This document shows positions 7,075 to 49,222 of a stretch of DNA of 64,000 nt, one piece after another; within the stretch, counting starts at the first letter, position 1, and every line of letters starts with the position of its first letter. The notes under the pieces are model-generated. The model was given only the letters and a program-made list of their open reading frames with translations, did not search any database and was not told the DNA's origin. The translations under genes were made by a program, and so were the position numbers. Source of the DNA: Selenomonadaceae bacterium (GTDB lineage: Bacteria; Bacillota; Negativicutes; Selenomonadales; Selenomonadaceae); assembly GCA_017518105.1 (NCBI GenBank), contig JAFWWC010000020.1, forward strand, positions 2,056 through 66,055, in the 5' to 3' direction.

Positions 7075-7237
7075 TTTATCAATCTCCCTTCGCGTATAAA
7101 ATCTTCGCTGAAATTCTATGCAACTGCTGATTTTACCTGCCGCCTTGCCAAAATATTTTTTTATAGCTTAGGAAACTTTTCAGCGGCTAACTTTTTTGTT
7201 ATCATGACGGAAAATTTTTCGGAGGAGGAAACTTATC

Positions 7238-29956: not shown

Positions 29957-30241
29957 ATGGCTGATAAAATTACTGTGAGCATTGAACTCGACGCCGATAT
30001 TAAAGCGGCTGCCGAGAAACTCTATCGCAAAATCGATTTGACGCTTGAAGAGGCTATCCCGCTCTTGGTCAAGTACAACGTCGAACAGGAAGAAGGCGCA
30101 ATCCCTAATCGGAAGCCCGCAATGGAAAAAAATTCCGCGTTCGGGGCGTTGTCGGAATATGCTAACCCCGCTTTGATTCCTTTTGAAGACGGCGCATTGG
30201 AAAGGGCTATGGTGAAACGCTATGAACAAGCTTTGGGTTGA
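29957..30241 (+). CDS. Type II antitoxin (RelB/DinJ-like N-terminus), partner of the downstream PIN toxin
   Basis: 94 aa. ITVSIELDADIKAAAEKLYRKIDLTLEEAIPLLVKY resembles the DinJ/RelB ribbon-helix-helix N-terminus. Overlaps the toxin gene by 20 nt. Confidence 0.6.
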   Translation: MADKITVSIELDADIKAAAEKLYRKIDLTLEEAIPLLVKYNVEQEEGAIPNRKPAMEKNSAFGALSEYANPALIPFEDGALERAMVKRYEQALG

Positions 30242-30593
30242 TACAAACGTTGTATTGCGCTATCTTTTGCGTGACAACGAGGAGCACGCGCAAGTTGCTA
30301 AGGAATTGATTGAGGGCGGCGCATTTCTTCTTCCCGAAGTGCTTATGGAAACGTCGCATGTCTTGCGTAGCTTTTATGAGGTTGATAGACAAAATATCGC
30401 TACGCAACTTTTAATCGTCTTGGATTGGGTCGAAATGGAACGCAAAGCCGTGATGATTCGTGCGGTAGAAATTTTCGCTAAGACAAAGTTGGACTTCGTT
30501 GACTGCATACTCGTCGCGTATCACGAATTGGAAAATGTCGAGGTCTTTACCTTTGACAGGAAACTGAATAAACAACTTAAGCAGGAGGATTAA
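30222..30593 (+). CDS. vapC: PIN-domain toxin (VapC-like)
   Basis: Acidic quartet in the expected order: VDTNV, PEVLME, DFVDCIL and TFD. 123 aa. Confidence 0.75.
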   Translation: MNKLWVDTNVVLRYLLRDNEEHAQVAKELIEGGAFLLPEVLMETSHVLRSFYEVDRQNIATQLLIVLDWVEMERKAVMIRAVEIFAKTKLDFVDCILVAYHELENVEVFTFDRKLNKQLKQED

Positions 30594-30597
30594 AGCT

Positions 30598-32919
30598 TTG
30601 AAACTTGACGGCTTGAAAAAACTTCACTTTATAGGAATTGGCGGCGTGGGTATGAGTGCCCTCGCTAAAATTTTGATTGAGCAAGGTTACGAGATAAGCG
30701 GCTCGGACGCTAAAGACTCGCCGACGCTTTACATGCTTAAAAGTCTCGGCGCAAGGATTTTCGTCGGGCACAAGGCTAAAAATATTCTCGACGAGGCGGG
30801 CAATCCCGTCGATGCTATCGTTTGCTCGTCGGCTATCCCTACGGACAATCCCGAAGTCATCGCGGCGGGCAAATTCAAGATTCCTAAGCTCCACCGCTCC
30901 GACATCAACGCTTTCCTAGTCAATTCGCACAAAGGGATTGCAATCGCCGGTTCGCACGGCAAAACTACTACGACTTCAATGATTGGTTACGTCCTGCACT
31001 ACGCGAGCATTGACCCGACGATTATTATTGGCGGCGAATCAACCGATTTGGGCACGGGAGCTATCCTCGGCAAAAGTGATTGGCTTGTAACCGAGGCTGA
31101 CGAAAGCGACGGCTCATTTGTCACGTTGAAGCCCGCAATCGCAGTTGTCACGAACGTTGAGGACGACCACCTCGACCATTATGGCACGATGGATAGGATT
31201 CGCGCCGCGTTTAAGATTTTTATCGAGAATATCGACCGCAAATCGGGCGTGGCAGTCCTTTGCTTCGACAATGACAACCTGCGCGAGCTTGCTAAGGACA
31301 TTGACCGCAAAATTATTTCCTACGCGATTGATAACCCCGCCGACTTTACGGCAAAGAACATTCGCACGACGATTAAGGGCGTGGCGTTTGAAGTTGTGCA
31401 CGGCGAAGAGACGCTTGGCAAAGTTCAGCTGGCGATTCACGGGCGGCACAACGTCCTTAACGCTTTGGCGACGATTGCCACGGCTCTTGAGGTCGGTTTG
31501 AGTTTTAATCAGATTGCCGAGGGCTTAAGCAACTTTCACGGGGCTAAAAGGCGTTTCCAAACCAAAGGACGCGTCAGAAATATTTTAATCGTCGACGATT
31601 ACGCCCATCACCCCACGGAGATTGCCGCGACACTCAAAGCCGCCCGCGAAACTAAGCCGCATAAAGTCATTTGCATTTTCCAGCCCCACAGATACAGCCG
31701 CACGCAACTTTTGCTTAAGGAATTCGGCGGCGCGTTCAAAGAGGCTGACCTTTTAATCTTGACGGACGTTTACTCGGCGGGCGAAGAAAAAATTTCGGGC
31801 GTCAGTGGCGAATCAATCCTCCAAGAAGTCCTAAGCACGACCAATCAAGCCGTCTCATACATTCCCAAACGCGAAGACATTGCCGCCGCTATCAAAGACC
31901 AACTTTCCGCCGGCGATTTGGTTATCACTATGGGCGCGGGCGATATTTACAAGACTGGCGAAGAACTTTTGAACATGCTCAAGGATTTGCGCGAGAAAAA
32001 AATTGTCGTCGTATGTGGCGGCACGTCCACCGAGGCTGAAGTCTCCAGACGCACCGGCAAGGCGATTTTTGACGCGCTAAGCTCCAAAAATTACGACGTT
32101 GAACTTATGGAACTCAATCCGCAGACTTTTGCCGCTACGATTCGCGCTAAGGATTGCGGAATTGTTTTTAACGCGATTCACGGCAAATACGGCGAGGACG
32201 GACTGATTCAAGGGACGCTCGACATGTTGAAGATTCCTTACACCGGTTCTGGAGTGCTTGCCGCCGCTTTGACTATGGATAAGGTCGCCACGAAACATTT
32301 TCTGAACTCCGCTAACCTCTCTACGCCCAAATTCGCCGTTTATCGTGAAATCGACCGTTCAGAAGACCTCGCCGCCGACATTGAAAACAAATTCGGGCTG
32401 CCCGTCGTCATCAAAGCCGCGTCGCAAGGTTCAAGTATCGGCGTGACTATCGTCGAGAAGCCTTCGGAGATTGCCGAGGCGATTGAAAATGCTTTTACCT
32501 TCGGCGACGAGATTTTAGTTGAGGAATTTATTCGCGGACGCGAGCTGACGGTTGCGGTTATGGGCAATGAGGACGCCGCCGAAGCCCTGCCCGTCATCGA
32601 AATCACCACAACGACCGGTCGCTACGATTATAAATCAAAATATACTAAGGGATTGTCGACGCACATTTGCCCCGCGCCGATTCCAGACAATTTGACCGCC
32701 GAAGTTAAAAAATTAGCCGTCGACGCCTTCAAAATCTGCAAATGCGCCGGCGTCGCCCGCGTTGACCTCATGCTTTCCGAAAATAATATTCCTTACGTCA
32801 TCGAAATTAATTCTGTGCCCGGCATGACTGAAACTTCACTTGTCCCCGACGCCGCTCGCGCTGCTGGCATCGATTTTCCGGAGCTTTGCGAAAAAATTCT
32901 TGCCCTCGCCGAATTCTAA
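30598..32919 (+). CDS. murC-ddl: Fused UDP-N-acetylmuramate--L-alanine ligase (MurC) / D-alanine--D-alanine ligase (Ddl)
   Basis: N-terminal HFIGIGGVGMSALA, GSHGKTTTTSM and DDYAHHPTE (MurC). From about aa 470, KIVVVCGGTSTEAEVS, GEDGLIQG, ATP-grasp and EINSVPGMTETSLVP (Ddl). One uninterrupted 773-codon ORF. Confidence 0.9.
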   Translation: MKLDGLKKLHFIGIGGVGMSALAKILIEQGYEISGSDAKDSPTLYMLKSLGARIFVGHKAKNILDEAGNPVDAIVCSSAIPTDNPEVIAAGKFKIPKLHRSDINAFLVNSHKGIAIAGSHGKTTTTSMIGYVLHYASIDPTIIIGGESTDLGTGAILGKSDWLVTEADESDGSFVTLKPAIAVVTNVEDDHLDHYGTMDRIRAAFKIFIENIDRKSGVAVLCFDNDNLRELAKDIDRKIISYAIDNPADFTAKNIRTTIKGVAFEVVHGEETLGKVQLAIHGRHNVLNALATIATALEVGLSFNQIAEGLSNFHGAKRRFQTKGRVRNILIVDDYAHHPTEIAATLKAARETKPHKVICIFQPHRYSRTQLLLKEFGGAFKEADLLILTDVYSAGEEKISGVSGESILQEVLSTTNQAVSYIPKREDIAAAIKDQLSAGDLVITMGAGDIYKTGEELLNMLKDLREKKIVVVCGGTSTEAEVSRRTGKAIFDALSSKNYDVELMELNPQTFAATIRAKDCGIVFNAIHGKYGEDGLIQGTLDMLKIPYTGSGVLAAALTMDKVATKHFLNSANLSTPKFAVYREIDRSEDLAADIENKFGLPVVIKAASQGSSIGVTIVEKPSEIAEAIENAFTFGDEILVEEFIRGRELTVAVMGNEDAAEALPVIEITTTTGRYDYKSKYTKGLSTHICPAPIPDNLTAEVKKLAVDAFKICKCAGVARVDLMLSENNIPYVIEINSVPGMTETSLVPDAARAAGIDFPELCEKILALAEF

Positions 32920-32982: not shown

Positions 32983-34398
32983 TTATCGCGTCGTATTCGT
33001 TTTGGCGGTGTTTATTTCTTTTCTCATGCGGAAAATCAGCCCGTTGAACTCGTCAGCGCGTTTCTTTATCGCGTCTGCGTATGTTTTGGCGTCCGAAAGG
33101 TATTCCGCGAAGTTTTGCCGCCTCAAGTCCGTAAATCTTTCCATAACTTCATCTGAAATCGCTTTTAACTTTTTTTCCTCTATAAATTCGTTTATCTCGT
33201 CGATTTGAAGGTTAATTATCGGCTCCGACCACTTGATTATAAAGATTTTTTCCTCCGTTTTGCCAGTCGAAAAGATTATGTCCTGCAATTCCCGTTGAAA
33301 TGCGCTTGATAACTTGTTTATTTCGCTCTCTACCTCAAATTTCTCTTGCAATTCGCCGCCTGACATGAATACGAATTTCTGATAGATATTTTTCCGCTCA
33401 TTCAAATAAAATTCGTCTACCTTGTCGCGATATTGGCGCAGAATCGCTACCACTTGCCCTATTTTATCCCCTAAATACCCTTTTAACACGAATTCAAACA
33501 GCGGCAACAATCTTTGTTCTATCAAAATCCTTTTTTTAGCCCATTCGTCGTACCAATTTATAAAAATTTCCTCTTCTATGCTCTCCGAACGGCTTATTGC
33601 TCGCATTTCCTCCCGCAAACTCGTCCGAAATGATTTATATTCCTCGCTGAACGAATTATGCGCCGATATTACGTCCAAAATTATTTTTTTGTGCGCCGTG
33701 AAGAAATTTAGCCGCGTCAACGCGCTTTGAACCAGTTCTACTAGGTTTTCGACCAAAAATCCGAAGCTTGGACGCTCTTCACGCTCCAATTTTGCCATTT
33801 CTCTAAGCGATTCATAGCCCATATTGATTTCTGACAGCTTTTTAAAGAATACTTCTGCCTGTTCCTTGACTAAAAGCATTTCCCGCTTTATTTCTTCCGA
33901 ACCAAACGCTAATTTTCTTACTAAAAACTCCTGCCGAGTCGCCAATAATGTATTTTCTTCGGGTGTGAGGTGCGGATTTTCGATATATTTGGCGTTTAAC
34001 TTTAAAATTGTTCGTGTGAGTTCGCCGATTGACTCTTTTTGCGCCGTTTCTTGACTTTGAATCACGTTTAACAGCTCATCGACTACTTTTTGCGTTGCCT
34101 TGTAGTATTTTATCGGTGATTTTTCGATTTCGGCGACCGCGTAGCCATTTAAAATTGTTTGCGCGTCGATTTCTTGCTTTGGCGGCGTTATTTGCGTGTT
34201 TGACGGTGTGGATTTAGGTTTTTTTTGCATTTCAGGCTTTGAAAAGTGAATTTTAGCAACGTTATACATATAATCACTCATATAAGCATAATTACTAAAA
34301 AACTCAAAGCCAGAATTCTTTAAAAAATCCATAAGAGTCTTTTCAGAGCAGTTTAATTCTTTTGCAACTTCAAAAATACGTTTTTCTTGATAAGCCAA
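32983..34398 (-). CDS. 471-aa helical/coiled-coil protein with an IF2_N-like helix-turn-helix N-terminus, function unknown
   Basis: TTG 34398 sits 8 nt after AAGGAGG. N-terminus (M)AYQEKRIFEVAKELNCSEKTLMDFLKNSGFEF resembles the IF-2 N-terminal domain (RVYELAKELGVSSKELLEKLKELG). The rest is Glu/Lys-rich and helical. The track start 34719 reads through non-coding repeats. Confidence 0.6.
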   Translation of the reverse strand: MAYQEKRIFEVAKELNCSEKTLMDFLKNSGFEFFSNYAYMSDYMYNVAKIHFSKPEMQKKPKSTPSNTQITPPKQEIDAQTILNGYAVAEIEKSPIKYYKATQKVVDELLNVIQSQETAQKESIGELTRTILKLNAKYIENPHLTPEENTLLATRQEFLVRKLAFGSEEIKREMLLVKEQAEVFFKKLSEINMGYESLREMAKLEREERPSFGFLVENLVELVQSALTRLNFFTAHKKIILDVISAHNSFSEEYKSFRTSLREEMRAISRSESIEEEIFINWYDEWAKKRILIEQRLLPLFEFVLKGYLGDKIGQVVAILRQYRDKVDEFYLNERKNIYQKFVFMSGGELQEKFEVESEINKLSSAFQRELQDIIFSTGKTEEKIFIIKWSEPIINLQIDEINEFIEEKKLKAISDEVMERFTDLRRQNFAEYLSDAKTYADAIKKRADEFNGLIFRMRKEINTAKTNTTR

Positions 34399-34435
34399 AG
34401 GATTCAACCTCCTTAAAAATGATTTTTGCTGGAAG

Positions 34436-34464
34436 ATTATAGCATGTAGAAGAAAAATGAGCAA
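34436..34464 (-). promoter_or_regulatory. Sigma-70-type promoter of the 471-aa gene
   Basis: Minus strand TTGCTC (34464-34459), 17 nt spacer, TATAAT (34441-34436) with a TGC extended -10 context. Confidence 0.6.
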
Positions 34465-34492
34465 AGATTTTTTCAAAACGACCTCTGAAGAT

Positions 34493-34620
34493 GATTTTGG
34501 TCTTTGAAAGACGCTTTGAACTGCTTTCATCGGCTTGAAACTGCTTTTGGCGGTTTGAAAACGGTTTTGAGTGCTTGAAAGTGATTTTGGAGCTTTGAAA
34601 CGGGTTTTGAGGTCGATTTG
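34493..34620. repeat. Iteron-like array of about six tandem 19-22-bp direct repeats
   Basis: + strand units: ttgaactgctttcatcggc (34516), ttgaaactgcttttggcggt (34535), ttgaaaacggttttgagtgc (34555), ttgaaagtgattttggagct (34575), ttgaaacgggttttgaggtcga (34595), plus partial units at 34493-34515. Consensus TTGAAA-NNG-NTTTTGR-NNGY. The 20-bp period is not a multiple of 3. Confidence 0.8.
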
Positions 34621-34635
34621 GAGGCTCAAATTACG

Positions 34636-34656
34636 AAATCCTATATATGGGATTTT
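34636..34656. repeat. Palindrome AAATCC-n8-GGATTT (copy 1)
   Basis: aaatcctatatatgggatttt. Confidence 0.8.
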
Positions 34657-34692
34657 GTATCGCGTGATTATGCGTGTTTTTCGGCGATTACA

Positions 34693-34710
34693 AAAATCAG
34701 GGGTGATTTT
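34693..34710. repeat. Palindrome AAAATCA-GGGG-TGATTTT
   Basis: aaaatcaggggtgatttt. 7-bp arms sharing the AAAATC half-site. Confidence 0.8.
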
Positions 34711-34724
34711 GAGGGTCAAAACGG

Positions 34725-34746
34725 AAAATCCAGAATATCGGATTTT
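34725..34746. repeat. Palindrome AAAATCC-n8-GGATTTT (copy 2)
   Basis: aaaatccagaatatcggatttt. Confidence 0.8.
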
Positions 34747-34780
34747 TCAAAAGGCTAAGTGGCGTCATTACGCGAAACAA

Positions 34781-34804
34781 TAAAAAAGCCCCTGTTCAGG
34801 GCTT
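34781..34804 (-). terminator. Rho-independent terminator downstream of the 1230-aa gene
   Basis: Minus strand AAGCCC-tgaacag-GGGCTT-TTTTATT. Confidence 0.65.
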
Positions 34805-34815
34805 GAGAAGGGCTG

Positions 34816-34859
34816 AAAAATCCAGCATACAGGATTTTTATCCGAAATACCGGATTTTT
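34816..34859. repeat. Two adjacent palindromes of the AAAATCC-n-GGATTTT family (copies 3 and 4) directly after the stop of the 1230-aa gene
   Basis: aaaaatccagcatacaggattttt followed by atccgaaataccggattttt. Confidence 0.8.
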
Positions 34860-37800
34860 CAGTTCGCCAAGACGATAACGCCAGAATGCTTGAGATTCCA
34901 AGAATCGCCGCTGACCTCGAAGGTCGCCGCTCGCTCGACACGAATTTTAGAATAAGTGCCGCCGTCGAAATTCGATTCAAAGACCAGCCCAAAAGCGCGT
35001 TCGGCGTGATGATTTTCGGTGTAAGTCTTGAGATTCGGCACGACCGCGAAAATATTTCCGTCGACGTTGCACGCCCAAAAATCGCCGTTCGCTATACCGG
35101 ATTCCGTAAATTTCGGGGCTATTTTCGGGTTATTCATGCGTTCTTCGACATTTGCACAGCTAAAAGCACGTATTTTATAGCGTCTAATGAATTTTTCGCG
35201 GGCTTGACGGGCACTAAACCCGCTCAATTTCTCTAAAGCGTTAAAATCGTTTACAAAATTTTCTCCGATTGAACTTTCAACGCTCGGCGAATTTTTTTCT
35301 GCAGAAATAATTTTTCGAGTCCCTAATTTCTTATTCTTAGTTCCTAAAAACATCTTTAATTCGGAAATAAAAATCGGTTCAACAGACAATTTTTTAACGT
35401 CGCGACCCTTTTTATCAACAAAAAAGTTATTAACATCGCTGATAAGGTCTTCTTCTTCAAAATTAATGCCTTCCGACCAAAGCTTTTGCGAGGAATTAAA
35501 TCTATCGACGAAAATTTTAAATTCGCGAAGACTATTAACCGTGACGCCCTCCGAAATGTCATAAGCACTGATAAACGCGCCCGCCAATTGATTTTCGCTG
35601 TTCTGAACGAAATTTTCGCCCGCCAATACCGCTGAATAAATAATTTCGTCAGATTCGCCGAACATTTCCCGATTTATACGCGCTTCATCGAAAAATTCAG
35701 CGTCATTTGCAGGTTTTTCGACAATCATACCCGCCGCAACCTCGATTTTCGGTTGTTCGCTAAGGTGCAAGTTAAATTTTTTATAGTTTTCTAGTCCAGA
35801 CGCCGCAACAAAGACTTTTTCAAGGACATTTAAATAAATATTGCCGTCAATTTCCGTTCCGCCCGTGAGCCATTTAAAAATTCGTGCGCCATTGCCGCCT
35901 ACGAACAAATGCGGCACCTTTTTTTCCCGATAATGCCCGTAATCATGCAAAATCTTAACTAATTTGCCCAAATAATGAAATAAACCCGCCGTAGCGAACT
36001 GTGAAGCCTGCAAAACGTTTTTTATTTGCTCCGTACCCGTTTTAAACTTCAAATCAGCTAAATATTTCTCGGAATGCTCGCGTAAATCGGCGTCAATTAC
36101 CGCTTGACGTTGCGTTTCGTCGTTAAATTTGCCAGAAATTTTTTCGCCAGCAAAAAGCTCGTAATTATCATAAATCGGCTTAAAAAGTTGTCTTGCGGCG
36201 TATTTAATCGACGTATGATAAATAATTCGAGGTGATTCGCCGCTAATAACGCTAATATCGGTCGTTCCCGCGCCAATATCAACGCAAATTGCACCTTGAG
36301 CGAAATTTCCGCTTTTCCCGTCGAGTTTATTGAAGTGATACGCCGCCGCTTTGCTTTCAGACCAGAAATTTGGCGTATTTTCGACTGATTCGCGGCAAAT
36401 TTCTTGGAAAGAGACCTTTTGAGCCTGCGAAAACGCTGTTGGATAAGAAAAATTCCATTGAATAGCGTTTGCACCGCTCGAAAACGCCTCAACAGCCGCT
36501 TGCAAACAAATTTGTTCGATATAAGCCGCCGTTTTACGTCTTTGGCGGTCATCGTCTTGCCATTTTAAATTTGCGTCAATATTTGCGGCTAATTGCTCGA
36601 AAACTCGCGTATTCTCGGAACTTAATAAAAAAACGTGCCCATCGATTAACGGACGAATATTTTTTGTATTTTCGACGTTAAGCAAGTGGAAAATGCTTAA
36701 AAAAGAACCGTCAGCGCGATTTGGGATTTGCGAAGGGATAAAATTGCGATAAGTTTGAGTTCGTGCGCCGCCTGAAGACGTAATTTGGAATAAATGCGGC
36801 GAAAAATTCAATGGACGCGGCGAATTTTGATTTTCGGCGAAAAAAACCATTGTGGAGCTTGTCCCGAAGTCCACGCCGATTTTCCAAGTCAAATTAGCGT
36901 TGCGTTCGGCGATTTTAGGTTTGTTAAGTAGAATTGCGCCGACTTCAAAGGGATTTTTACCTAAATGAGCGGGCGGATTGTACGTTACGATTAAAATTTC
37001 TGGGAAATTATCAAGCTTAACGGTGAATCTATTCTTTAAAAAGTTTTTATCGTTGTGAGCATAAGGAGTGACAAAATAAATATCTGATGCGGGCAAATCG
37101 TCATCAGACTTATAATTTTCGTAGTAAAGGTAGTAATTTTTCCAATCAGGGCGTTGAAAGTTGGGATAAAGCTCGATAACGGGGACTTCCTGGTCAATAT
37201 AAATTAAATCGCGCTTTGGATAAGTTTTAGACCAACGAAAATCTTTTCCATTGCCATTTACGCCGCTAAGAGGAAAAATAAAGTGCAAATAAAAGTTGTC
37301 GGCGTCATCGGAGATAGAAATTCGATTTGAAAGCTCTTCGGGCGTAAAAATATCCAACAGTTCACGTCTAAGGGGCAGAATCGGCGTTAAATCTTTTTCA
37401 ACGAGCGAATCATAACCTTTAAGCGGCGGAGAGTTCGGAAAGGCGTTTGCAGGTTCGACAACAGCCATTCTGTCATAAAAAAAATCTTCGGGGCGGCGGA
37501 ATTCAGCTCCATTGAGGTTTACGCGCCCAATTTTTTTATTATCGGCTAATTTATCGTTTGAAATTTCATTTGCGCTGATGCCTTGCCAAATGACGAGCCT
37601 TGAAGCGTCGACGCCTTCAAAGCGGGCAAAGTCTCTGACGAATTCGGGAGAAATCAACAGCAAATGCTTTTTATCGTTGAGCAAACGGACGGCGGAATCT
37701 TCAAAGCGAGCTTCGCGCCCTTTAATCGTTTCGTCGAGCAATCTGGTAATCCCAACGTGCAAATTTAAATTCGACGGGACAATTTCAAAGCTGACGGTCG

Positions 37801-38551
37801 AGGGTTGAGCATTAGCAACGTCGCGTTCGTAATCGGCAATGCATTTCAACAGCGCATTAGAAATTTCCTTAGCACGGCTTCCGAACTTCTCTAGCTGCTG
37901 AATTTTGCCGTAAAGATTGTCCAACCACATTTTGAGCGCGGCGAGTTCGACGGAAGATAAAAATTTTATCGGGTCGGTCAAGGTTCGTTGATTGGAACTC
38001 CACGGCGTGAAAATATTTCCGTCAAAGGTGTTTTCGTAGTCCGCCGCACAAGTTACGAGCGTCGTCGGCGAAGTCATTGCTAGCGGTCGTCCGTTGAAAA
38101 AAATTATGTAAACGTCCGTCAGCCAAGCGTCCCTGTTGCCCGTCAATGATTCTTGTGGCGCGAGAGACTTTAAAATTTGCGCGAGGTCTGAATTGTCGTC
38201 GAGGAGATTGACTTGCTCCGCTTTGAGGTCGAGACGTTTGAAATCTTTTAGCGCGAGCATTGCCAATAACGCCCGCCACTCGCCGCGAACTTTTTCATGT
38301 AAGCCCGTGACAAATTGTTTGGTCGGCTCCAAGTCGAACAACGCCATTTTGAACAGCAGAGGACGCGCCCACATGTCGGGGATTGAATCGACCGAGCCCA
38401 TGTCCTTGATTGATTCGCCGCAATCGAGACTGTTTGACAGTCCGAGCAAAAAATTTATGTCCGTTTCCTTCCAAATGCCTGCCTGGTCTTTGAGGACTTT
38501 GGAAACGTCTTCGTTGACCTTCGGCAACATCGGAAAATATGAATTCGCCAT
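34859..38551 (-). CDS. 1230-aa protein of unknown function with an embedded actin/Hsp70-fold (ASKHA) ATPase domain
   Basis: ATG 38551 sits 6 nt after GGAGGT. The track start 38656 has no SD. ASKHA motifs: WKIGVDFGTSSTMVFF (phosphate 1), AICVDIGAGTTDISVI (phosphate 2) and HLFVGGNGARIFKWL (adenosine). About 590 aa N-terminal and about 300 aa C-terminal carry no motif I recognise. Confidence 0.7.
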   Translation of the reverse strand: MANSYFPMLPKVNEDVSKVLKDQAGIWKETDINFLLGLSNSLDCGESIKDMGSVDSIPDMWARPLLFKMALFDLEPTKQFVTGLHEKVRGEWRALLAMLALKDFKRLDLKAEQVNLLDDNSDLAQILKSLAPQESLTGNRDAWLTDVYIIFFNGRPLAMTSPTTLVTCAADYENTFDGNIFTPWSSNQRTLTDPIKFLSSVELAALKMWLDNLYGKIQQLEKFGSRAKEISNALLKCIADYERDVANAQPSTVSFEIVPSNLNLHVGITRLLDETIKGREARFEDSAVRLLNDKKHLLLISPEFVRDFARFEGVDASRLVIWQGISANEISNDKLADNKKIGRVNLNGAEFRRPEDFFYDRMAVVEPANAFPNSPPLKGYDSLVEKDLTPILPLRRELLDIFTPEELSNRISISDDADNFYLHFIFPLSGVNGNGKDFRWSKTYPKRDLIYIDQEVPVIELYPNFQRPDWKNYYLYYENYKSDDDLPASDIYFVTPYAHNDKNFLKNRFTVKLDNFPEILIVTYNPPAHLGKNPFEVGAILLNKPKIAERNANLTWKIGVDFGTSSTMVFFAENQNSPRPLNFSPHLFQITSSGGARTQTYRNFIPSQIPNRADGSFLSIFHLLNVENTKNIRPLIDGHVFLLSSENTRVFEQLAANIDANLKWQDDDRQRRKTAAYIEQICLQAAVEAFSSGANAIQWNFSYPTAFSQAQKVSFQEICRESVENTPNFWSESKAAAYHFNKLDGKSGNFAQGAICVDIGAGTTDISVISGESPRIIYHTSIKYAARQLFKPIYDNYELFAGEKISGKFNDETQRQAVIDADLREHSEKYLADLKFKTGTEQIKNVLQASQFATAGLFHYLGKLVKILHDYGHYREKKVPHLFVGGNGARIFKWLTGGTEIDGNIYLNVLEKVFVAASGLENYKKFNLHLSEQPKIEVAAGMIVEKPANDAEFFDEARINREMFGESDEIIYSAVLAGENFVQNSENQLAGAFISAYDISEGVTVNSLREFKIFVDRFNSSQKLWSEGINFEEEDLISDVNNFFVDKKGRDVKKLSVEPIFISELKMFLGTKNKKLGTRKIISAEKNSPSVESSIGENFVNDFNALEKLSGFSARQAREKFIRRYKIRAFSCANVEERMNNPKIAPKFTESGIANGDFWACNVDGNIFAVVPNLKTYTENHHAERAFGLVFESNFDGGTYSKIRVERAATFEVSGDSWNLKHSGVIVLAN

Positions 38552-38670
38552 GCTGATACCTCCAAAAAGTTTTCCGCGCAAAGTATAGCAGAAAAAAAAT
38601 TCCGCGCAAAGCGGGCAAGGCGTGTTATAATGGCGACGCTTGAGATTTTTTGACAAGAGAGGAAAGTTTA

Positions 38671-42696: not shown

Positions 42697-43008
42697 ATGA
42701 AGTACTATTATCCCGCCGTGTTTACGCCGAAGGGTAGCGGCCTCGTAGGCTATACGCTTGAATTCCCCGATATCCCCGGCTGTCTCACTATGGGCGACGA
42801 TATCCCCGAATGCATGTGGATGGCGCAGGACGCGCTCGGCTTAATGCTTGAAGATTACGAAGACAAAGGCTATCCTACTCCGTCGAATTTACTTGACATT
42901 GACCTTAGCGATTATCCTGCTGGTTCGTTTGTCTCTTACGTCTGCTTTGATAAGGAGCAATACGACGCCGCTACCGGCAAGTCCAAAGTCGTTAAGCAAA
43001 CCGCTTAG
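42697..43008 (+). CDS. hicB: HicB-family antitoxin (N-terminal HicB fold only)
   Basis: MKYYYPAVFTPKGSGLVGYTLEFPDIPGCLTMGDDIPECMWMAQDAL is typical of HicB. No obvious C-terminal HTH/RHH. Confidence 0.75.
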   Translation: MKYYYPAVFTPKGSGLVGYTLEFPDIPGCLTMGDDIPECMWMAQDALGLMLEDYEDKGYPTPSNLLDIDLSDYPAGSFVSYVCFDKEQYDAATGKSKVVKQTA

Positions 43009-43054: not shown

Positions 43055-43810
43055 TTATCGGCGCAGAATGTATTTCACGACAAGATAGCCGACCTCATAA
43101 AGCAGGATAACGGGAATAGCTACGGCGATTTGAGTTATCACGTCGGGCGATGTGACTAAGGCTCCAATCACGAACGAGAAGAAGAATACGTAGCGGCGAT
43201 ATTTGCCGAGCTTCTCGCTGGTTAAGATGCCGAGCTTGCCTAGGACGATAATCACAAGCGGCAACTCGAATACAAACCCGAACGGCAGGACGAACAGTAT
43301 CACGAACTCGAAATAGCTACCGAACGAAAAGAGCGTCTGCAGGTTCTCTGATTCTTGCCCGAAACCCATAAAGAACTTAAGCGCAGTCGGCAGGATAAGG
43401 AAGAACGAGAACGCTAGCCCCGTGAAGAACAACGCGACTGACGTGGGCACAAGGATTCCCATTACGGCTCGTTCACTCTTTGTCAGGGCGGGCAAGAAGA
43501 ATTTCCACGCGTGATAAAAAATTATCGGCAGAGCAATCAGGAAACCCGCCGCGACATCGATTTTAAGATACGTAAAGAAAGCCTCGCCGGGCTTCATGTA
43601 GTAAAGCTTGCCGACGGGCAATGTCAGGTAATTTGTTATCTCGTCGAGGAAAAGATAGGCGACGCAACTGCCAAAGGCGATAGCCAGCAACGATTTGATG
43701 ATTCGTGAACGGAGTTCCTCAAGGTGCGCCGTCAAGCTCATAGTGCCATCGTCATCAGCGGGAACTTTATCTTGCTCGACCTGTGCGGAGGTTTTATCAG
43801 GCTCAGTCAT
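43055..43810 (-). CDS. tatC: Twin-arginine translocase subunit TatC
   Basis: MSLTAHLEELRSRIIKSLL and six TM segments with FFLPAL and FELP patterns. Confidence 0.9.
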   Translation of the reverse strand: MTEPDKTSAQVEQDKVPADDDGTMSLTAHLEELRSRIIKSLLAIAFGSCVAYLFLDEITNYLTLPVGKLYYMKPGEAFFTYLKIDVAAGFLIALPIIFYHAWKFFLPALTKSERAVMGILVPTSVALFFTGLAFSFFLILPTALKFFMGFGQESENLQTLFSFGSYFEFVILFVLPFGFVFELPLVIIVLGKLGILTSEKLGKYRRYVFFFSFVIGALVTSPDVITQIAVAIPVILLYEVGYLVVKYILRR

Positions 43811-44013
43811 TTTTTCTCCGTGTCAATCTTTGCGGCGTCAAGTTTCTTTTGCTCAGTCACGTCGACGGTTTTATTGTCGTCGGAGTTTGCCTGCTTGAAC
43901 TCTTTAATGCTCTGTCCTAAAGCTTTGCCGACGCCGGGGAGCTTGCCGGGACCAAAGACAACTAAGCCGATGATAAGAATTAAAATGAGTTCGGGAACGC
44001 CTATGCCAAACAT
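43807..44013 (-). CDS. tatA: Twin-arginine translocase subunit TatA
   Basis: MFGIGVPELILILIIGLVVFGPGKLPGVGKALG. ATG 44013 preferred over the track start 44088. Confidence 0.9.
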   Translation of the reverse strand: MFGIGVPELILILIIGLVVFGPGKLPGVGKALGQSIKEFKQANSDDNKTVDVTEQKKLDAAKIDTEKK

Positions 44014-44109
44014 GATTATCACTCTCCAAAAATTTTTTGCGATTATATCATAAGTTTTTTTGCGTGTCGAAAAATTTTTTGCTATCATTGGCGGCGGAGG
44101 TGTTCAAAG

Positions 44110-45216
44110 TTGACGAGCAGGCAAATAATCTTCGTGGCACTGGGCGGATCGCAAGCAGTCGGGGCAAGCTGTTACTTCCTCAAGCTCGGCGATAATAATC
44201 TTTTGCTCGATTGCGGCTACGGTTCGACACGCGGAATCAGATTCGCGCCGCAATTTAATGCTCTGCTCGACACGCCTTACTTGCAAGACTTCCATCAGGT
44301 ATCGCACGTCGTGATTTCTCATGCACACCTAGACCACGCCGCTGCCCTGCCTGATTTCTTGGAACTCAACGAACGAGCCGCAGTTTACATGACGGACTTG
44401 ACGCGAGAAATTTTATCCGCGCAACTGGAGGAGAGATTCACTCGGCTTGAGGAAAATATTTCGTCGGTCGCCTTCCTGCAAAAAATTCCTCTGCCGCGAC
44501 TTAAGCTGAGCTTTCACCAAGCAGGACATATCCCCGGCGCGATGATGACGCTGATAAACTTCCGAGGCAAGAACATTCTTTACACGGGCGACTATTCGAC
44601 GTTCTCGACGCAACTGGTAGGAGCCGCCCTCTTGCCCGACGTGCCGATTGATATTCTGATTCTTTGTGGACTGCACGCTAGGCATCCGAACTATCATCGC
44701 TACGGGGACAGCGACGCCGCCTTGAAAAAGATTCTGCACAAGATTTATTATGCTCTGCGTCATCGTAAGTCGGTTTACTGTCAAGTCACGCAGATTAGCA
44801 AGGGCGTTGAGCTCATCACGCTGATTAACAAGTTCCTGCCGCAAGTCGAGCTTTTCATTGATGAACGCGTCATGGGAATCGTTCGCCGCTTCGAGAACTT
44901 GCATATCCCGATAATGCGCGAACAGAATCACCCGCTGAACGTCCTGCCGCGAGCCCCCTGCGTTATCCTGTCGACAATGCCGCCGCCTGTGCATTCAGGT
45001 TTGGAGATTATAAACGGCGATTTCTCTTTGCATGATGACTTCGCCGCGACTGTAGAATTTGTCCGCCGAATCAATCCGAAAACTTGCGTTGTAGTGCACA
45101 GCCCGCCCGATAAATTCTTCCACACGGGCACGACGCTTGAACAAGTTTTAATTAACGACCCCGACTCAAGGACGAGCTTTATCTTCCCGAAGACGGGCGA
45201 GCCGTTTGAACTGTAA
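44110..45216 (+). CDS. MBL-fold metallo-hydrolase of the beta-CASP type (putative nuclease)
   Basis: LLLDCG (motif 1), ISHAHLDHAAALP (HxHxDH), QAGHIPGA (motif 3), LYTGDYS (motif 4), later SLHDDF and VVVHSPP (beta-CASP B/C-like). TTG start 7 nt after GGAGGTG. Confidence 0.7.
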   Translation: MTSRQIIFVALGGSQAVGASCYFLKLGDNNLLLDCGYGSTRGIRFAPQFNALLDTPYLQDFHQVSHVVISHAHLDHAAALPDFLELNERAAVYMTDLTREILSAQLEERFTRLEENISSVAFLQKIPLPRLKLSFHQAGHIPGAMMTLINFRGKNILYTGDYSTFSTQLVGAALLPDVPIDILILCGLHARHPNYHRYGDSDAALKKILHKIYYALRHRKSVYCQVTQISKGVELITLINKFLPQVELFIDERVMGIVRRFENLHIPIMREQNHPLNVLPRAPCVILSTMPPPVHSGLEIINGDFSLHDDFAATVEFVRRINPKTCVVVHSPPDKFFHTGTTLEQVLINDPDSRTSFIFPKTGEPFEL

Positions 45217-45232
45217 CAGGAGGGAACTTTCA

Positions 45233-46303
45233 ATGATAAACACCAATGACCCGCTGATTAAAAGATTTATCGACAACCTGCACAAAGCCATTGAACGCAA
45301 GAGCAAAAATCTTTCCTCAAGCTCCTACGATGACTACATCAGGGAAAATCGTATCATAAAGATTTTCTGCGAGGACAAGACGAGGGGTCCGCGCCAATGT
45401 GCCGCCGCCATGAACGCCCGCTACAAAACCGACCTGGACAACGAAGACGTTATCCGCGTCCTTAAGTCCAATCGATTGAGCTATCAGGATAAACGCGCCG
45501 AGCTTTTGAATTGGGCGGAGGAGATGGTTGAGACTTTCGCTAAGGCTCTCGAAACGCAAAAGCAGAAGGACTTCGATGAGTTCATGACCGTTCGCAACAG
45601 AGCCATTCGCACGAACGACTACGAACGCTATAAAATTCAGGAGCGAATTGCTAGCCTTATGCTTTACGTCAAGCACCCCGAATTGGACAGCGGCACCGAT
45701 GCCGAGGCTCTTGAAAAGTTCGGAAACGTCTACATGAAGCATTTCATCTACGACGCCAGCGACTTCCTCCGGAATATTTGTAGTAAGCCCAAGACAAATT
45801 CCAAAGGCGATAAGAGAGACCCTCAGGCGGAAAAGATTGAGCTACTCGAAAACATGTTGAATCGCTCCGATATGCTCTTGAAGGACTTGCAAGACGAGTT
45901 CGACGCCCGCATTAAGCAAAGTCATCAAGATGATTTGGTGGAGTTCTTCTCGCGGCTCAATTCGGAAAAGTACGGTTGCATTCTCGACGAGGTCTTGAAC
46001 GCTAGGAACGGGGTTCGCAAGCTCCGCAAGGAAAATATTCAGCTTCATCCCGAAATAGGCGGGCTGTTTATCCTCATCGAACGCTTCGCGCAATTTATCC
46101 GTGACAGCGAGATCAATCCAATCCTCAAGCCCGGTGCCGTCAAAGAAGTTCGTTTGGAAGAGGTCGAGTCGTGCGATTATGACGGTTCGCCCTTCCTAAA
46201 CACCACGGAGACTAAAAAGGTTAGAGTTCTATCGCCCGGCTGGGTGTATAAGAATAAAGATGTTCAAATTTCACGCCCGCGACTTAAAGAGGTCACGGAG
46301 TAA
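45233..46303 (+). CDS. 356-aa protein: possible J-like (HPE) domain fused to a GrpE-like C-terminal domain
   Basis: ATG 45233 sits 8 nt after AGGAGGG. KDFDEFMTVRNRA...ASLMLYVKHPELDSGTDAEALEKFGNVYMKHF parallels DnaJ QDYYEILGVSKTA...[27 protein letters not shown]. A coiled coil follows. The C-terminus ...KKVRVLSPGWVYKNKDVQISRPRLKEV parallels the GrpE end (..V..V.QKGY.L..R.LRPA.V.V). All by eye. Confidence 0.4.
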   Translation: MINTNDPLIKRFIDNLHKAIERKSKNLSSSSYDDYIRENRIIKIFCEDKTRGPRQCAAAMNARYKTDLDNEDVIRVLKSNRLSYQDKRAELLNWAEEMVETFAKALETQKQKDFDEFMTVRNRAIRTNDYERYKIQERIASLMLYVKHPELDSGTDAEALEKFGNVYMKHFIYDASDFLRNICSKPKTNSKGDKRDPQAEKIELLENMLNRSDMLLKDLQDEFDARIKQSHQDDLVEFFSRLNSEKYGCILDEVLNARNGVRKLRKENIQLHPEIGGLFILIERFAQFIRDSEINPILKPGAVKEVRLEEVESCDYDGSPFLNTTETKKVRVLSPGWVYKNKDVQISRPRLKEVTE

Positions 46304-46315
46304 GGAGGTATTTTT

Positions 46316-49222
46316 ATGTTAATCAACGGAGAAGAGCACAACGATTTGTGCGTTGGAATTGATTTGGGTACGACCAATTCCGTTTTGGCGACGGTGAATA
46401 TCCGCCCGAACGGAAATATCGTCAGCAAGGTCGTCGACCTGGACAGAGCTGTTGACATGTACAACGCGGGGGTAGGTGCTAAATTCACGCTAAAGAAAAG
46501 TCCTATCCTGCCGAGCTGCGTCTATTACAACGACGAAAAAAACTATCAGCCGATTGTCGGCGACTTCGCGAAGGGCAGGTATCCTCTTCGCCCGTATTTA
46601 GTCGCTAAGTCAATCAAAAGCCAAATGGGTAATGAGTTCGTCGAAGGTTTATCATCGAATATCCCAGATAAGACGCCCGCGCAAGTCTCAGCCAGAATCT
46701 TAGAACACATGTTGCGCAATGCCGCTAAGATTTATCACTTGGAGAAAATTGACGACGCAGTAATAACCGTGCCCGCCAATTTCGATTTCATCATGAGGCA
46801 AGCGACTTTGAAGGCGGCGGAGCTTGCTGGAATTAAAATCAGAAAGGCGGACGGCTCCCCGCGACAAATTCTTTTGTCTGAACCACGCGCCGTTATCTAT
46901 GATTTTATTAATCAAGTGCGCAATGGTGAGATAGCCGACCAAATATTAGATTTAAGTTCGAAGAAAAATGTTATGGTCTTCGACTTGGGCGGCGGCACTC
47001 TCGATATTACTTTGCATGAAATTTCACGACGCGACGACGCGCCCGAAATTTTAAACGTCAAAGACATTGCGACCAATCGTTATACCCTCTTGGGCGGCGA
47101 TGATTTTGATTTGTGCCTCGCTAAGGCTATGTTCCAAAATTATCTCAAGCAATACGCGACGCACTCGGACATTGTTCAAAAGATACGCAACGAGGAACAA
47201 GGCGTTATGAGTCAGCTCCTCAACTACGCCGAGAATTTAAAACTGGAAGTTAGTGCTCAGAAAAGCGACGCGTTCGGCGATGGTGATTCTGGTTGGTGGG
47301 ACGACGAAGGCGAAGATTTTCCCGTCGGCGGCAATATCGGCACTACGGGTTATGCTTACAGCGACAATTTCACGGTCACGCAACTTGAAGACATTTGGAA
47401 AGACTTTATGGGCGATGAATTGCGATTCGACGACTACAAAGACCTAAACGCCGTCGCAGAGAGATTCGGCAAGCAGAAGAATATTATCCTGCCGATTCTC
47501 GACGTGCTAAGCAAAGCCTCAATCAAGCTCGGCACGGACATTAAAGTTGACGCCGTAATCATGAACGGAGGAATGTCCCGCTTCTACATGGTGATTAATC
47601 GCTTGAAGAAGTTTTTCGGCTTTGAACCGATTGTCGCCCTAGACCCCGACCAAGCTGTTGCTCGTGGCGCGGCTGTCTACCATTACTTTATCCACAAGTA
47701 CGACAAGGAGCTTGCCGGCGAAGTTCAAAACGAATTGCCAAGCAAAGAACCCAAACTTCCTACGCCGCCCCCGCTGACTTATTCAAGGCAGAACACCCGA
47801 CCCGATTTCCTGACACGCAGAACCAATCGCAATATCACGGCGGCTGATAGGTCAATCGGTGTCGTCTTCGGCAGCAATATCCTCAACGAAAGTTTTTATC
47901 TGGTAACCTTCGGCGGCAATTACGAAGAGATTATCCCCGCCGGCAAGGAGTTGCCTTACACGTCGAACCGATTCACCGGCTTTAGGTTGCCGCCGGGGAA
48001 AAATGTTATCAGCGTTCCGATTGCCCGTTGCGAGGCGGACGGCAACTACAAAATCATCGCCAAGGGCAATATCTCCTTCCCCGAACGCTATTCCAAGATG
48101 AAGGAAGATGTTTTCGTTACGTTTAGCATCTTCATGGACGAGGATAAGATTATCCGCATGGACGCCGCCACGTGTCGAGATGAACGCGGGCTTGAGCTGA
48201 TGGATCATGGCACGACGGAAATTTCTATCGCGACTGGCTTTGATAAGGGCGTTAAGACTAAGCTAATCTCTCGTTTCGGGGGCAAGGTCAATCCGCGTGC
48301 CCAACTCAATACGATTCGTTCGCTGTGCCGCAATGTCGATGATTCTTTCCGCCGCAAGAACAAGGAAGCTAACGTTAAATTCTCTGCGACGCTCAAGCTA
48401 AACGTCAGCACGATTATTTCTGCCACGAATCACAGAGACTTTGCCGAACCGCTCCTGCAAATGCTAGACGACGTTAAGAACTCCCGCGAAGAATCATTCA
48501 AGCTCCGTTGCGTCATCATTGCTCGGAAGATTGGCTCGGTTTGGACGCCCCAACAAAAAAGACGCCTTGCGCGCCTGTGCTTGTACCTTTTGGACGATGA
48601 GATTTACAACCCCGGCATAACCCTCGGACGCCCCCAAGGCTTGAAGATGAACACGAAGATACAAGCTATCTATACGCTGTCGATGTGCGGCAGTGAAAGT
48701 GATCTTGCCTTGCTGATTAACCTGCACAACAACGACAAGTTCCGCATGGCAAATCTTTTTACGCACGCAATGACTAAAACGGAGGTCGATTGGATTTATT
48801 ACGAGTTCAAGAAGGATTGTGCGAAGATTTTAAACGGCGCGACGACCTCGGCGATTCAAATCTCGGCGCACGCGCTCGGCGTTGCCTTCAAAGTCGACGG
48901 ACGCCCGACTAACTCTTCAATTCGCCGTGAACAAATCGTGACTGACCTTTGCAACGTGATTCGCTCGCGGAACCTAAATAACGTCGAGATTAGCGTTTGC
49001 ATTTTGGCTATTGGAATGATTTGCGACCGCCGTAACGTCAACAACATGTCGCAAGGCTCCTTCGAAGACGCGGAAAAGCTCCTTAACGATCTGAACCGCA
49101 TTTACGACGAAAACTTTGTTGAACTGTTCGCTAAGGCTCAAGACGTGGCGCAGAAGATGATTCACGGCGGGCAACTCAGCGCGGAGGAGGAAGAGTCTTT
49201 GCTGATGAAGTGGGCGACTTGA
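46316..49222 (+). CDS. Atypical Hsp70-family protein (NBD + SBD-beta-like region) with about 330-aa helical-repeat C-terminal extension
   Basis: VGIDLGTTNSVLA, AVITVPANF, VMVFDLGGGTLDITL, LLGGDDFD, VIMNGGMSRF and DPDQAVARGAAVY (Hsp70 NBD). YLVTFGGNYEEIIPAGKELPY...FMDEDKIIRMDA is SBD-beta-like. The C-terminal about 330 aa are helical rather than the canonical lid. Confidence 0.85.
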   Translation: MLINGEEHNDLCVGIDLGTTNSVLATVNIRPNGNIVSKVVDLDRAVDMYNAGVGAKFTLKKSPILPSCVYYNDEKNYQPIVGDFAKGRYPLRPYLVAKSIKSQMGNEFVEGLSSNIPDKTPAQVSARILEHMLRNAAKIYHLEKIDDAVITVPANFDFIMRQATLKAAELAGIKIRKADGSPRQILLSEPRAVIYDFINQVRNGEIADQILDLSSKKNVMVFDLGGGTLDITLHEISRRDDAPEILNVKDIATNRYTLLGGDDFDLCLAKAMFQNYLKQYATHSDIVQKIRNEEQGVMSQLLNYAENLKLEVSAQKSDAFGDGDSGWWDDEGEDFPVGGNIGTTGYAYSDNFTVTQLEDIWKDFMGDELRFDDYKDLNAVAERFGKQKNIILPILDVLSKASIKLGTDIKVDAVIMNGGMSRFYMVINRLKKFFGFEPIVALDPDQAVARGAAVYHYFIHKYDKELAGEVQNELPSKEPKLPTPPPLTYSRQNTRPDFLTRRTNRNITAADRSIGVVFGSNILNESFYLVTFGGNYEEIIPAGKELPYTSNRFTGFRLPPGKNVISVPIARCEADGNYKIIAKGNISFPERYSKMKEDVFVTFSIFMDEDKIIRMDAATCRDERGLELMDHGTTEISIATGFDKGVKTKLISRFGGKVNPRAQLNTIRSLCRNVDDSFRRKNKEANVKFSATLKLNVSTIISATNHRDFAEPLLQMLDDVKNSREESFKLRCVIIARKIGSVWTPQQKRRLARLCLYLLDDEIYNPGITLGRPQGLKMNTKIQAIYTLSMCGSESDLALLINLHNNDKFRMANLFTHAMTKTEVDWIYYEFKKDCAKILNGATTSAIQISAHALGVAFKVDGRPTNSSIRREQIVTDLCNVIRSRNLNNVEISVCILAIGMICDRRNVNNMSQGSFEDAEKLLNDLNRIYDENFVELFAKAQDVAQKMIHGGQLSAEEEESLLMKWAT

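Follow-up and report, generated by a model that had tools for sequence, protein, structure and literature searches.

A window of 64,000 nucleotides (nt) from a Selenomonadaceae bacterium (GenBank assembly GCA_017518105.1, contig JAFWWC010000020.1) contains three consecutive genes, here designated g1, g2 and g3 and together called the triad. They encode a predicted nuclease of the metallo-β-lactamase (MBL) fold and β-CASP type, a protein whose C-terminal half is homologous to GrpE, a nucleotide exchange factor (NEF), and an unusually long heat shock protein 70 (Hsp70). They are passed on together as a single unit, which is far from chance adjacency. We regard it as somewhat probable that the operon is a self-contained, non-canonical Hsp70/NEF machine with a tethered nuclease, the action of which would be tied to the client cycle of g3. 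In the NCBI records the proteins are labelled only as “Hsp70 family protein” and “hypothetical protein”, and the closest database relatives are found in Quinella sp. 1Q5 and other rumen Selenomonadaceae.

Layout and inheritance of the triad

The features of the triad are listed below with their positions in the window. NBD and SBD denote the nucleotide-binding and the substrate-binding domain of Hsp70, respectively.

44110-45216, + strand: g1, compact MBL-fold protein of 368 amino acids (aa), predicted β-CASP/RMMBL-type nuclease; TTG start with GGAGGTG upstream
45233-46303, + strand: g2, 356 aa; ATG start, AGGAGG within the 16-nt spacer between g1 and g2
45233-45787, + strand: N-terminal domain of g2 (residues 1-185), an orphan all-helical domain containing an HPE string
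45803-46303, + strand: C-terminal half of g2 (residues ~191-356 and stop codon), GrpE-homologous, putative exchange module with long helix, helical bundle and β domain
46316-49222, + strand: g3, 968 aa; ATG start, AAGGAGG within the 12-nt spacer between g2 and g3
46316-47695, + strand: NBD of g3 (residues 1-460), in which the loop of subdomain IIB (~318-352) is enlarged and conserved
47696-47893, + strand: variable low-complexity spacer of g3 (residues 461-526)
47894-48229, + strand: predicted SBD-β of g3 (residues ~527-638)
48293-49222, + strand: all-helical C-terminal region of g3 (residues ~660-968 and stop codon), predicted lid-like helices and HEAT-like repeat domain
from 4 nt past the g3 stop codon: TauE/TSUP gene (g4), adjoining g3

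The initial annotation had described three co-directional genes with gaps of 16 and 12 nt and a Shine–Dalgarno motif before each of them; coordinates and upstream motifs bear this out, and the comparative data confirm that the genes form a single conserved module. A scan with a g2 profile over one genome per species (185,579 species) yielded 104 relatives, 80 loci were fetched, and g1, g2, g3 and g4 were searched with tblastn against 85 loci. All of them encode a g2 relative; in 80 of these 85 the g1 gene lies directly upstream of it, and in 84 it is followed directly downstream by g3. Four of the five missing g1 genes and the single missing g3 are explained by contig ends, and the remaining case (locus L063) is a true absence of g1. 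The triad recurs in unchanged order in five further loci (L086-L090). With them the succession of MBL gene, g2 and Hsp70 gene is kept in essentially all of about 90 loci, down to 33-50% identity and between unrelated flanks. Median spacers over 76 loci are ~22 nt between g1 and g2 and ~12 nt between g2 and g3; most loci have spacers of 11-30 nt, and overlaps are frequent, often between g2 and g3. Three distant homologues of g3 (49-54% identity) are likewise encoded behind an MBL gene and an unannotated gene, in this order, in quite different neighbourhoods. The second of these genes is interrupted in one locus (L005), and only the C-terminal half of g2 is present as an open reading frame (ORF; 6895-7979). 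The locus without g1 (L063, 1-2255) also has a g2 that is short of ~30 N-terminal residues. It seems that one Selenomonadaceae sub-lineage, to which these two loci belong, is losing parts of the module. A protein of 732 aa (P0313) represents the full g1 fused to the full g2.

Co-occurrence outside this genome had been set beforehand as a test, and the triad is now known from Firmicutes of gut, rumen and oral cavity that belong to two classes. Among Negativicutes it is present in Quinella, other Selenomonadaceae, Megamonas and Pectinatus. The hosts among Clostridia comprise the type strains of Lachnoanaerobaculum orale and L. saburreum, Oribacterium, Faecalicatena, Acetatifactor, Robinsoniella, Ruminococcus, Eubacteriaceae and Epulopiscium. 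In human gut metagenomes the triad also occurs in a spore-former, assigned as host from the neighbouring genes spoIVA and sipL. Searches of PLSDB plasmids, GenBank phages and IMG/VR returned no relative of g2. Identities between the copies largely follow the clades; one Selenomonadaceae copy is nearer to the copies of Lachnospiraceae and Eubacteriaceae (55-58%) than to those of Quinella (50%). The metagenome-assembled genome of Quinella sp. 1Q5 contains the module on two contigs (L006, JACXWG010000036; L009, JACXWG010000077) with 94-98% identity to the window; either the module is duplicated or the bin could be a mixture of strains. In L. orale DSM 24553 genes for an orphan Cas6 and a YhgA-like transposase immediately precede the triad, right behind rpoC (L056, 2775-4631).

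The TSUP gene had been considered as possibly co-transcribed with the triad. Its position 4 nt downstream is correct, but it follows g3 in the Quinella-like subclade only and in none of 49 more distant loci. It was therefore rejected as a fourth component and is a clade-specific neighbour. No other gene family recurs beside the triad in the distant loci.

Concerning the start codons, the TTG of g1 is preceded by GGCGGAGGTG. A mechanical ORF list prolongs g2 to a TTG at 45206, inside g1; the alignment of every orthologue begins at the ATG and not there, and the ATG is taken as the start. On the + strand a scan of the window revealed no terminator-like site between g1, g2 and g3, and a promoter scan of the intergenic region upstream of g1 reported no promoter for the triad. 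The G+C content over the triad is unremarkable (49-51%), an Rfam scan of the window gave no RNA family, and no canonical grpE was found with tblastn in the window or in the fetched loci.

On the other side of g1 lies the tatA ORF (93 aa, 43807-44109), the start of which in the mechanical ORF list is probably 25 codons too early, the TatA-like sequence beginning at MFGIGVPE. A start at this place would leave a divergent intergenic region of ~96 nt ahead of g1. The region before g1 also contains a near-consensus promoter of tatAC on the - strand (TCGACA-17-TATAAT with TG).

The three proteins

The product of g1 had been described as an MBL-fold protein with the full series of β-CASP motifs, and this description holds: HAHLDH, GHIPGA, TGDYS and late histidines are present and the catalytic residues are intact. 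Its Pfam matches are Lactamase_B and Lactamase_B_2. The RMMBL model scores 20.6 bits in the window protein, just under the cutoff of 21.6, and orthologues exceed this threshold with 33.5, 22.7 and 22.5 bits. In NCBIfam the top match is the archaeal β-CASP ribonuclease (RNase) aCPSF1 (E = 1.2e-26); Cas14, RNase J and the ligase-associated exonuclease come next. The best matches in the PDB are CPSF73 (E = 5e-22), Ysh1, IntS11, archaeal CPSF and TTHA0252. In a second stretch FSLHDD...VVVHSPP of g1 is aligned with FSAHTD...ILVHGE of CPSF73 in the region of motifs B and C. Some orthologues additionally match the generic MBL family Anti-Pycsar_Apyc1.

Invariant or nearly so in 75 orthologues of g1 are D34, H71-x-H73-x-D75-H76, H139, D161, D181, H307 and H330. 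The four MBL motifs (D, HxHxDH, H, D) correspond to D34, H71/H73/D75/H76, H139 and D161; H307 and H330 represent the conserved β-CASP motifs B and C, and motif A is tentatively assigned to the invariant D181. Since the metal-ligand residues are invariant among orthologues, g1 is predicted to be a short but catalytically competent β-CASP enzyme. RNA is the more likely substrate, because orthologues pass the threshold of RMMBL (“RNA specificity”) and because the relatives include CPSF73, aCPSF1, IntS11 and TTHA0252.

Neither as single sequence nor as 17-sequence profile did g2 of the window match any entry in Pfam, NCBIfam, PADLOC or PDB sequences. Because the window protein misses the Pfam model of GrpE, its homology to this exchange factor rests on profile–profile and transitive evidence. 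A profile search of 1.84 billion representatives led to 326 family clusters at 50% identity, from which an alignment of 51 sequences reaching 18% identity was obtained. With hhalign the 51-sequence profile was aligned to five GrpE sequences with a probability of 74% (P = 2.7e-5) over 143 colinear columns; the alignment places residues 191-345 of g2 on 31-179 of GrpE and covers nearly the whole GrpE core. The real alignment scored 40.3, decoys reached 20 (reversed) and at most 17 (30 column shuffles). Four of the GrpE rows were copied from PDB alignments, and the sequence from Bacillus subtilis was validated by its match to PDB 4ANI (4e-63).

Among the 51 representatives seven match PF01025 at E <= 0.01, and any other family is seen in two members at most. 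Two distant metagenome members exceed its gathering score of 25.8 bits, namely those of L087 (41.8) and L086 (31.6), and both their genes are flanked by an MBL gene and an Hsp70 gene. Precomputed matches to PF01025 exist for P0391-P0393. Some conserved positions coincide in both families: D252 of g2 corresponds to the aspartate of LLPVLD in GrpE and G336 to the glycine of QKGY. At the C-terminus R348-P349...V354 can be read from the alignment as RPxxV of GrpE.

An AlphaFold2 model of g2, built on an alignment of 16 sequences, has a mean predicted local distance difference test (pLDDT) score of 79.6. Its C-terminal part is composed of helices 197-229, 232-241, 245-266 and 273-291 and a β domain (294-353), which is the GrpE architecture of long dimerisation helix, bundle and C-terminal β domain. 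The long helix 197-229 has low pLDDT as a monomer, and this would fit a helix in need of its dimer partner. Foldseek with the g2 model gave nothing significant in the PDB, where the GrpE chain 1dkg_A ranked first by probability (0.33), and nothing in BFVD. Based on the hhalign result compared with its decoys, the PF01025-positive distant members and the GrpE-like topology of the model, the C-terminal half of g2 is considered a true GrpE homologue.

The initial annotation had already compared the end of g2 with the β domain of GrpE, and this part of its proposal stands. It had also aligned the middle of the protein by eye with a J-domain carrying HPE, and this part does not stand. The string YVKHPELDSG is present in g2 of the window, but hhalign against an alignment of J-domain sequences, used without independent validation, gave a probability of 0.07%. 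None of 16 g2 members matched PF00226 in Pfam even at E <= 10. In the 51 representatives H148 is found in four and P149 in 26, and the third position is mostly glutamate. The J-domain was thus rejected, and with it falls the idea that both co-chaperone functions of Hsp70 are united in one polypeptide. No J-domain was found in g1, g2 or g3. As this reading fails, the N-terminal domain of g2 is left as an orphan. It has no match in Pfam, PDB sequences, NCBIfam or PADLOC, and Foldseek gave no significant match in PDB or BFVD. The model shows nine helices within residues 1-183, with pLDDT mostly 84-96. Four relatives (P0245, P0328, P0322, P0351) have two tandem copies of this domain before the GrpE-like half, and it can therefore be considered as an independent, duplicable module.

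The third protein had been described as an Hsp70 with NBD, SBD-β and a helical tail in place of the normal lid, and all these parts were recovered. PF00012 matches with 126.7 bits (cutoff 20.6; E = 1.1e-36), and phmmer aligned the NBD with residues 5-280 and 333-378 of DnaK. In 19 orthologues, down to 49% identity, D16, G18-T19-T20, K98, E189, D223-x-GGGT228, GGDDFD260-265, NGGMS417-421 and D445/R450-GAA are invariant. According to the phmmer alignment D16, G18-T20, K98, E189, D223-GGGT228 and NGGMS417-421 are equivalent to D8, T11-13, K70, E171, D194-GGGT199 and the adenosine motif of DnaK. This means that all catalytic and phosphate-binding residues are kept and that the NBD is, as judged from sequence, ATPase-competent. 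The NCBIfam equivalog models of DnaK, HscA and HscC score only 119-134 bits on g3 against cutoffs of 620-822, the best values being those of the HscA subfamily (134 vs 620) and of DnaK (123 vs 648). Because these scores are far below the cutoffs, g3 represents a separate Hsp70 lineage and not a housekeeping DnaK, as had been supposed from the beginning. The loop in subdomain IIB is enlarged and strongly conserved (W327, G338, I341, Y348, D350, F352). Since the “GrpE signature” of DnaK is located at this place (PMC8215388), g2 might plausibly dock on the loop.

Past residue 460 a PDB profile search gave no SBD match by sequence, and the region 461-968 was modelled with AlphaFold2 (pLDDT 76.7). 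The spacer after the NBD is disordered over ~60 residues (pLDDT < 50 for model residues 1-62) and differs in length and sequence between orthologues. It is followed by a nine-strand sandwich at ~527-638, which Foldseek places on the SBDs of DnaK, BiP, HscA and Ssb with probability 1.00 (best E = 4.5e-5). Alignments restricted to SBD-β extend over ~120 columns with root-mean-square deviations of 3.8-4.8 Å, and the conserved residues of the sandwich follow the usual SBD-β pattern. At the level of the structural model the presence of an SBD-β is thus confirmed. A conserved NILN[DE]S segment immediately before it could be the equivalent of the interdomain linker.

The tail of g3 is modelled as 16 helices between ~660 and 967 (about 310 residues, pLDDT mostly 85-95) and has weak Foldseek matches of the HEAT/ARM type (4d4z and 5dll, both probability 0.91). 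In the model its first two long helices may be lid-like, with ~270 more helical residues coming after. The protein ends with the invariant motif LSxEEEExLLxK (residues 956-968, window 49181-49219), in which E958, E959, L962, L963 and K965 do not vary. By analogy this acidic motif recalls EEVD, the co-chaperone docking motif of eukaryotic Hsp70s.

Proposed mechanism, related systems and alternatives

From these parts a working scheme can be drawn. The g2 protein would dimerise via its GrpE-like long helix, dock on the NBD of g3 and open it, and ADP would be released. Its N-terminal domain would hold g1, which in this way would be brought to a client captured by the SBD and the HEAT-like tail of g3, the helical domain extending or replacing the usual lid. 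Alternatively, g1 might be released or activated as g3 cycles. If one end of g2 holds the nuclease and the other opens the NBD, nuclease action would be tied in space or time to the cycle of g3. The target would most plausibly be a protein–RNA complex. Because the triad has no dedicated J-protein, the trigger for ATP hydrolysis is supposed to come from the client or partner or else from J-proteins of the host. The physiological role may be RNA and protein quality control or defence. More tentatively, and with clear doubt, we suggest that such operons may be a new class of Hsp70-powered nuclease machines, in which a GrpE-type factor was turned into an adaptor tethering a β-CASP RNase and the client-binding cycle of the chaperone licenses RNA cleavage; they would serve as immune or stress sensors for folding load or foreign proteins or in the disposal of faulty ribonucleoprotein complexes.

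Several points weigh against this scheme. In g1 the acidic residue of motif A is not evident at its canonical position. For RNA as its substrate family resemblance is the single argument, and the RMMBL score in the window (20.6 bits) is below the cutoff. The g2 protein of the window has itself no Pfam match to GrpE, and its full-length model gave no significant Foldseek match in the PDB. The sole fusion, P0313, was called as a gene in a metagenome and may be an artefact of assembly or of a frameshift. Finally, the canonical VLLLD linker is not obvious in g3, and therefore allostery of the Hsp70 type may differ in this protein.

Parts of the architecture are shared with known systems. Like DnaK–GrpE(–DnaJ), the triad combines an Hsp70 having NBD, SBD-β and intact ATPase residues with an adjacent GrpE-homologous factor of the same layout. 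It differs by the length of g3 (968 aa), by the disordered spacer in place of the short linker and the ~310-residue helical HEAT-like tail, by the extra 185-residue N-terminal domain that the GrpE module of g2 bears, by the lack of dnaJ and hrcA in the triad and by a β-CASP nuclease as obligate partner. The pairs HscA/HscB and HscC/DjlB,C (PMC8215388) are also divergent Hsp70 paralogues encoded with their own co-factor and presumably have a narrow client range. In contrast with the triad they possess a dedicated J-protein and need no NEF, whereas the triad has an NEF and no J-protein; besides, HscA and HscC are shorter than DnaK, and g3 is much longer.

A similar order of domains was published for CnuD/CnuCD of the type III CoCoNuT systems (PMC11090510), where an Hsp70-like NBD/SBD is followed by HEAT-like repeats, a nuclease is co-encoded and RNA is the predicted target. 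The tails of g3 and CnuD resemble each other in architecture, according to the published description of CnuD (PMC11090510). CnuD acts together with an McrB-like GTPase, McrC (DUF2357) and HEPN RNases and has, by the published account, degenerate ATPase motifs (PMC11090510). The triad has no McrBC, HEPN or coiled-coil nuclease tandem, and possesses invariant ATPase motifs, a GrpE-like NEF and a β-CASP nuclease. Membership was rejected, as there is no McrB, DUF2357 or HEPN among the neighbours in the window and the related loci; the genes seen there encode Tat, TSUP, transporters, tRNA synthetases and the like. The GAP1-N2 GTPase systems of Firmicutes and Actinobacteria (PMC7159879) likewise contain a dedicated Hsp70 together with GrpE in a non-housekeeping multi-gene system. 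They are built around a TRAFAC GTPase core and FNIII-repeat proteins fused to DnaJ or TPR, neither of which the triad has. This candidate was rejected too, no TRAFAC GTPase or FNIII-repeat gene being found beside the triad in the inspected loci.

With CPSF73, IntS11, aCPSF1/FttA, TTHA0252 and Cas14 of type VII CRISPR-Cas, g1 shares the MBL and β-CASP fold, HxHxDH and the late histidines. As for CPSF73, IntS11 and Cas14, delivery to the target is probably accomplished by partner proteins. It is shorter than the β-CASP ribonucleases (368 aa vs 430-650) and has no KH or other RNA-binding extensions, and its partners are a chaperone and an NEF, those of known β-CASP enzymes being scaffold or Cascade-type proteins. 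PADLOC-DB v2 returned marginal matches only (E = 0.0085 and 0.011), which concern generic MBL and NBD stretches, and none for g2. The triad is not described in the full-text literature searched and matches no named system in PADLOC or NCBIfam, in agreement with the initial annotation. Its further statement that no described system couples a dedicated Hsp70/NEF pair to a β-CASP nuclease has to be qualified: Hsp70 and GrpE are known as pairs elsewhere (PMC7159879), and an Hsp70 NBD/SBD with HEAT-like repeats is known from CnuD (PMC11090510); neither publication mentions a β-CASP partner. According to a recent review it is not known what the DnaK-derived paralogues of bacteria do (PMC13580251).

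Among the alternatives, a function as anti-phage or abortive-infection system deserves most attention, although on balance we consider it rather unlikely. A latent toxic β-CASP effector would be held or gated by the Hsp70/NEF pair, and infection would alter the Hsp70 load, be it by unfolded or foreign proteins or by a phage protein recognised by the SBD or HEAT tail, whereupon the nuclease would cut cellular or phage RNA. Precedents are the Hsp70 and GrpE associated with GAP1-N2 GTPases (PMC7159879) and CnuD with its HEPN RNases in CoCoNuTs (PMC11090510). The spread of g2 relatives is patchy and sparse (104 of 185,579 species-level genomes), the cassette occurs in differing neighbourhoods, and the Selenomonadaceae copy with greater similarity to Lachnospiraceae and Eubacteriaceae gives a hint of transfer; the orphan cas6 and the transposase gene adjoining the triad in L. 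orale also speak for a defence role. However, none of the three proteins has a significant PADLOC match, and the searches of plasmids, phages and IMG/VR contigs returned no g2. Housekeeping genes make up most of the flanks, defence genes do not recur there, and synteny is stable in many Quinella-like genomes. Moreover, g3 is 44-50% identical across classes of Firmicutes, which is above what is usually expected for defence proteins.

Less probable still is that the Hsp70/NEF pair is a client-dedicated chaperone that folds, metal-loads or assembles g1, as HscA/HscB do for IscU, and that g1 afterwards acts alone in RNA or DNA processing. Such a function would suit the strict co-inheritance of the three genes, and the g1–g2 fusion fits a chaperone permanently bound to its client. 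There are established examples of specialised prokaryotic Hsp70s that serve one or a few clients (HscA, HscC; PMC8215388), yet the known specialised ones keep the J-protein and drop the NEF (PMC8215388), the reverse of what is found here. A conserved helical domain of ~310 residues together with SBD-β seems excessive for a single small client. We know of no β-CASP nuclease that needs a dedicated chaperone.

That an ordinary DnaK paralogue and a co-chaperone merely lie beside an unrelated MBL hydrolase, possibly for small molecules, is hardly credible: the great diversity of MBL-fold proteins and the Anti-Pycsar_Apyc1 matches of some g1 orthologues would allow it, but order and strand are kept in ~80 independent loci down to 33-40% identity and mostly with 11-30 nt spacers, a g1–g2 fusion exists, and the β-CASP/RMMBL signatures favour a nuclease over a small-molecule hydrolase.

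Surroundings in the window and meaning of the triad

Further genes in the window were noticed in passing. A HicB-like antitoxin gene (103 aa) is located at 42697-43008, and no obvious HicA partner was seen among the ORFs of at least 80 aa. At 30222-32919 a gene for a PIN-domain (VapC-like) protein lies directly upstream, at a distance of 4 nt, of one for a 773-aa fusion of a MurC-type ligase and a D-Ala-D-Ala ligase. Between this murC-ddl fusion and a DedA/VTT gene follows a region on the - strand (32983-38656) with low G+C content (40-45% vs ~50% elsewhere), which comprises two large genes. The larger product (1265 aa) has weak matches to ATPases of the actin/MreB/MamK type around residues 736-843; the other (578 aa) shows no solid domain. 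Neither of them has PDB sequence matches or a significant PADLOC match. This region may be a horizontally acquired island with a second, unrelated ATPase of the actin/Hsp70 superfamily, 8 kb from the triad.

The triad is apparently an undescribed variant of dedicated Hsp70 systems in which a nuclease would be tethered through the NEF. In the specialised Hsp70s known so far a dedicated J-protein does the steering, whereas in the triad this would fall to a dedicated, domain-extended GrpE homologue, with a nuclease attached. This suggests a chaperone motor wired directly to a nuclease. For the family of “hypothetical proteins” to which g2 belongs, with its 326 clusters at 50% identity, a first functional handle is given. 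With a size of ~5 kb the triad is present in cultured organisms (Lachnoanaerobaculum orale DSM 24553, L. saburreum DSM 3986 and Megamonas hypermegale) and is directly testable there. If the proposed coupling is true, ATP-driven protein remodelling would be linked directly to nucleic-acid cleavage in bacteria, with chaperone-assisted RNA surveillance as well as chaperone-sensing immune systems as obvious counterparts.

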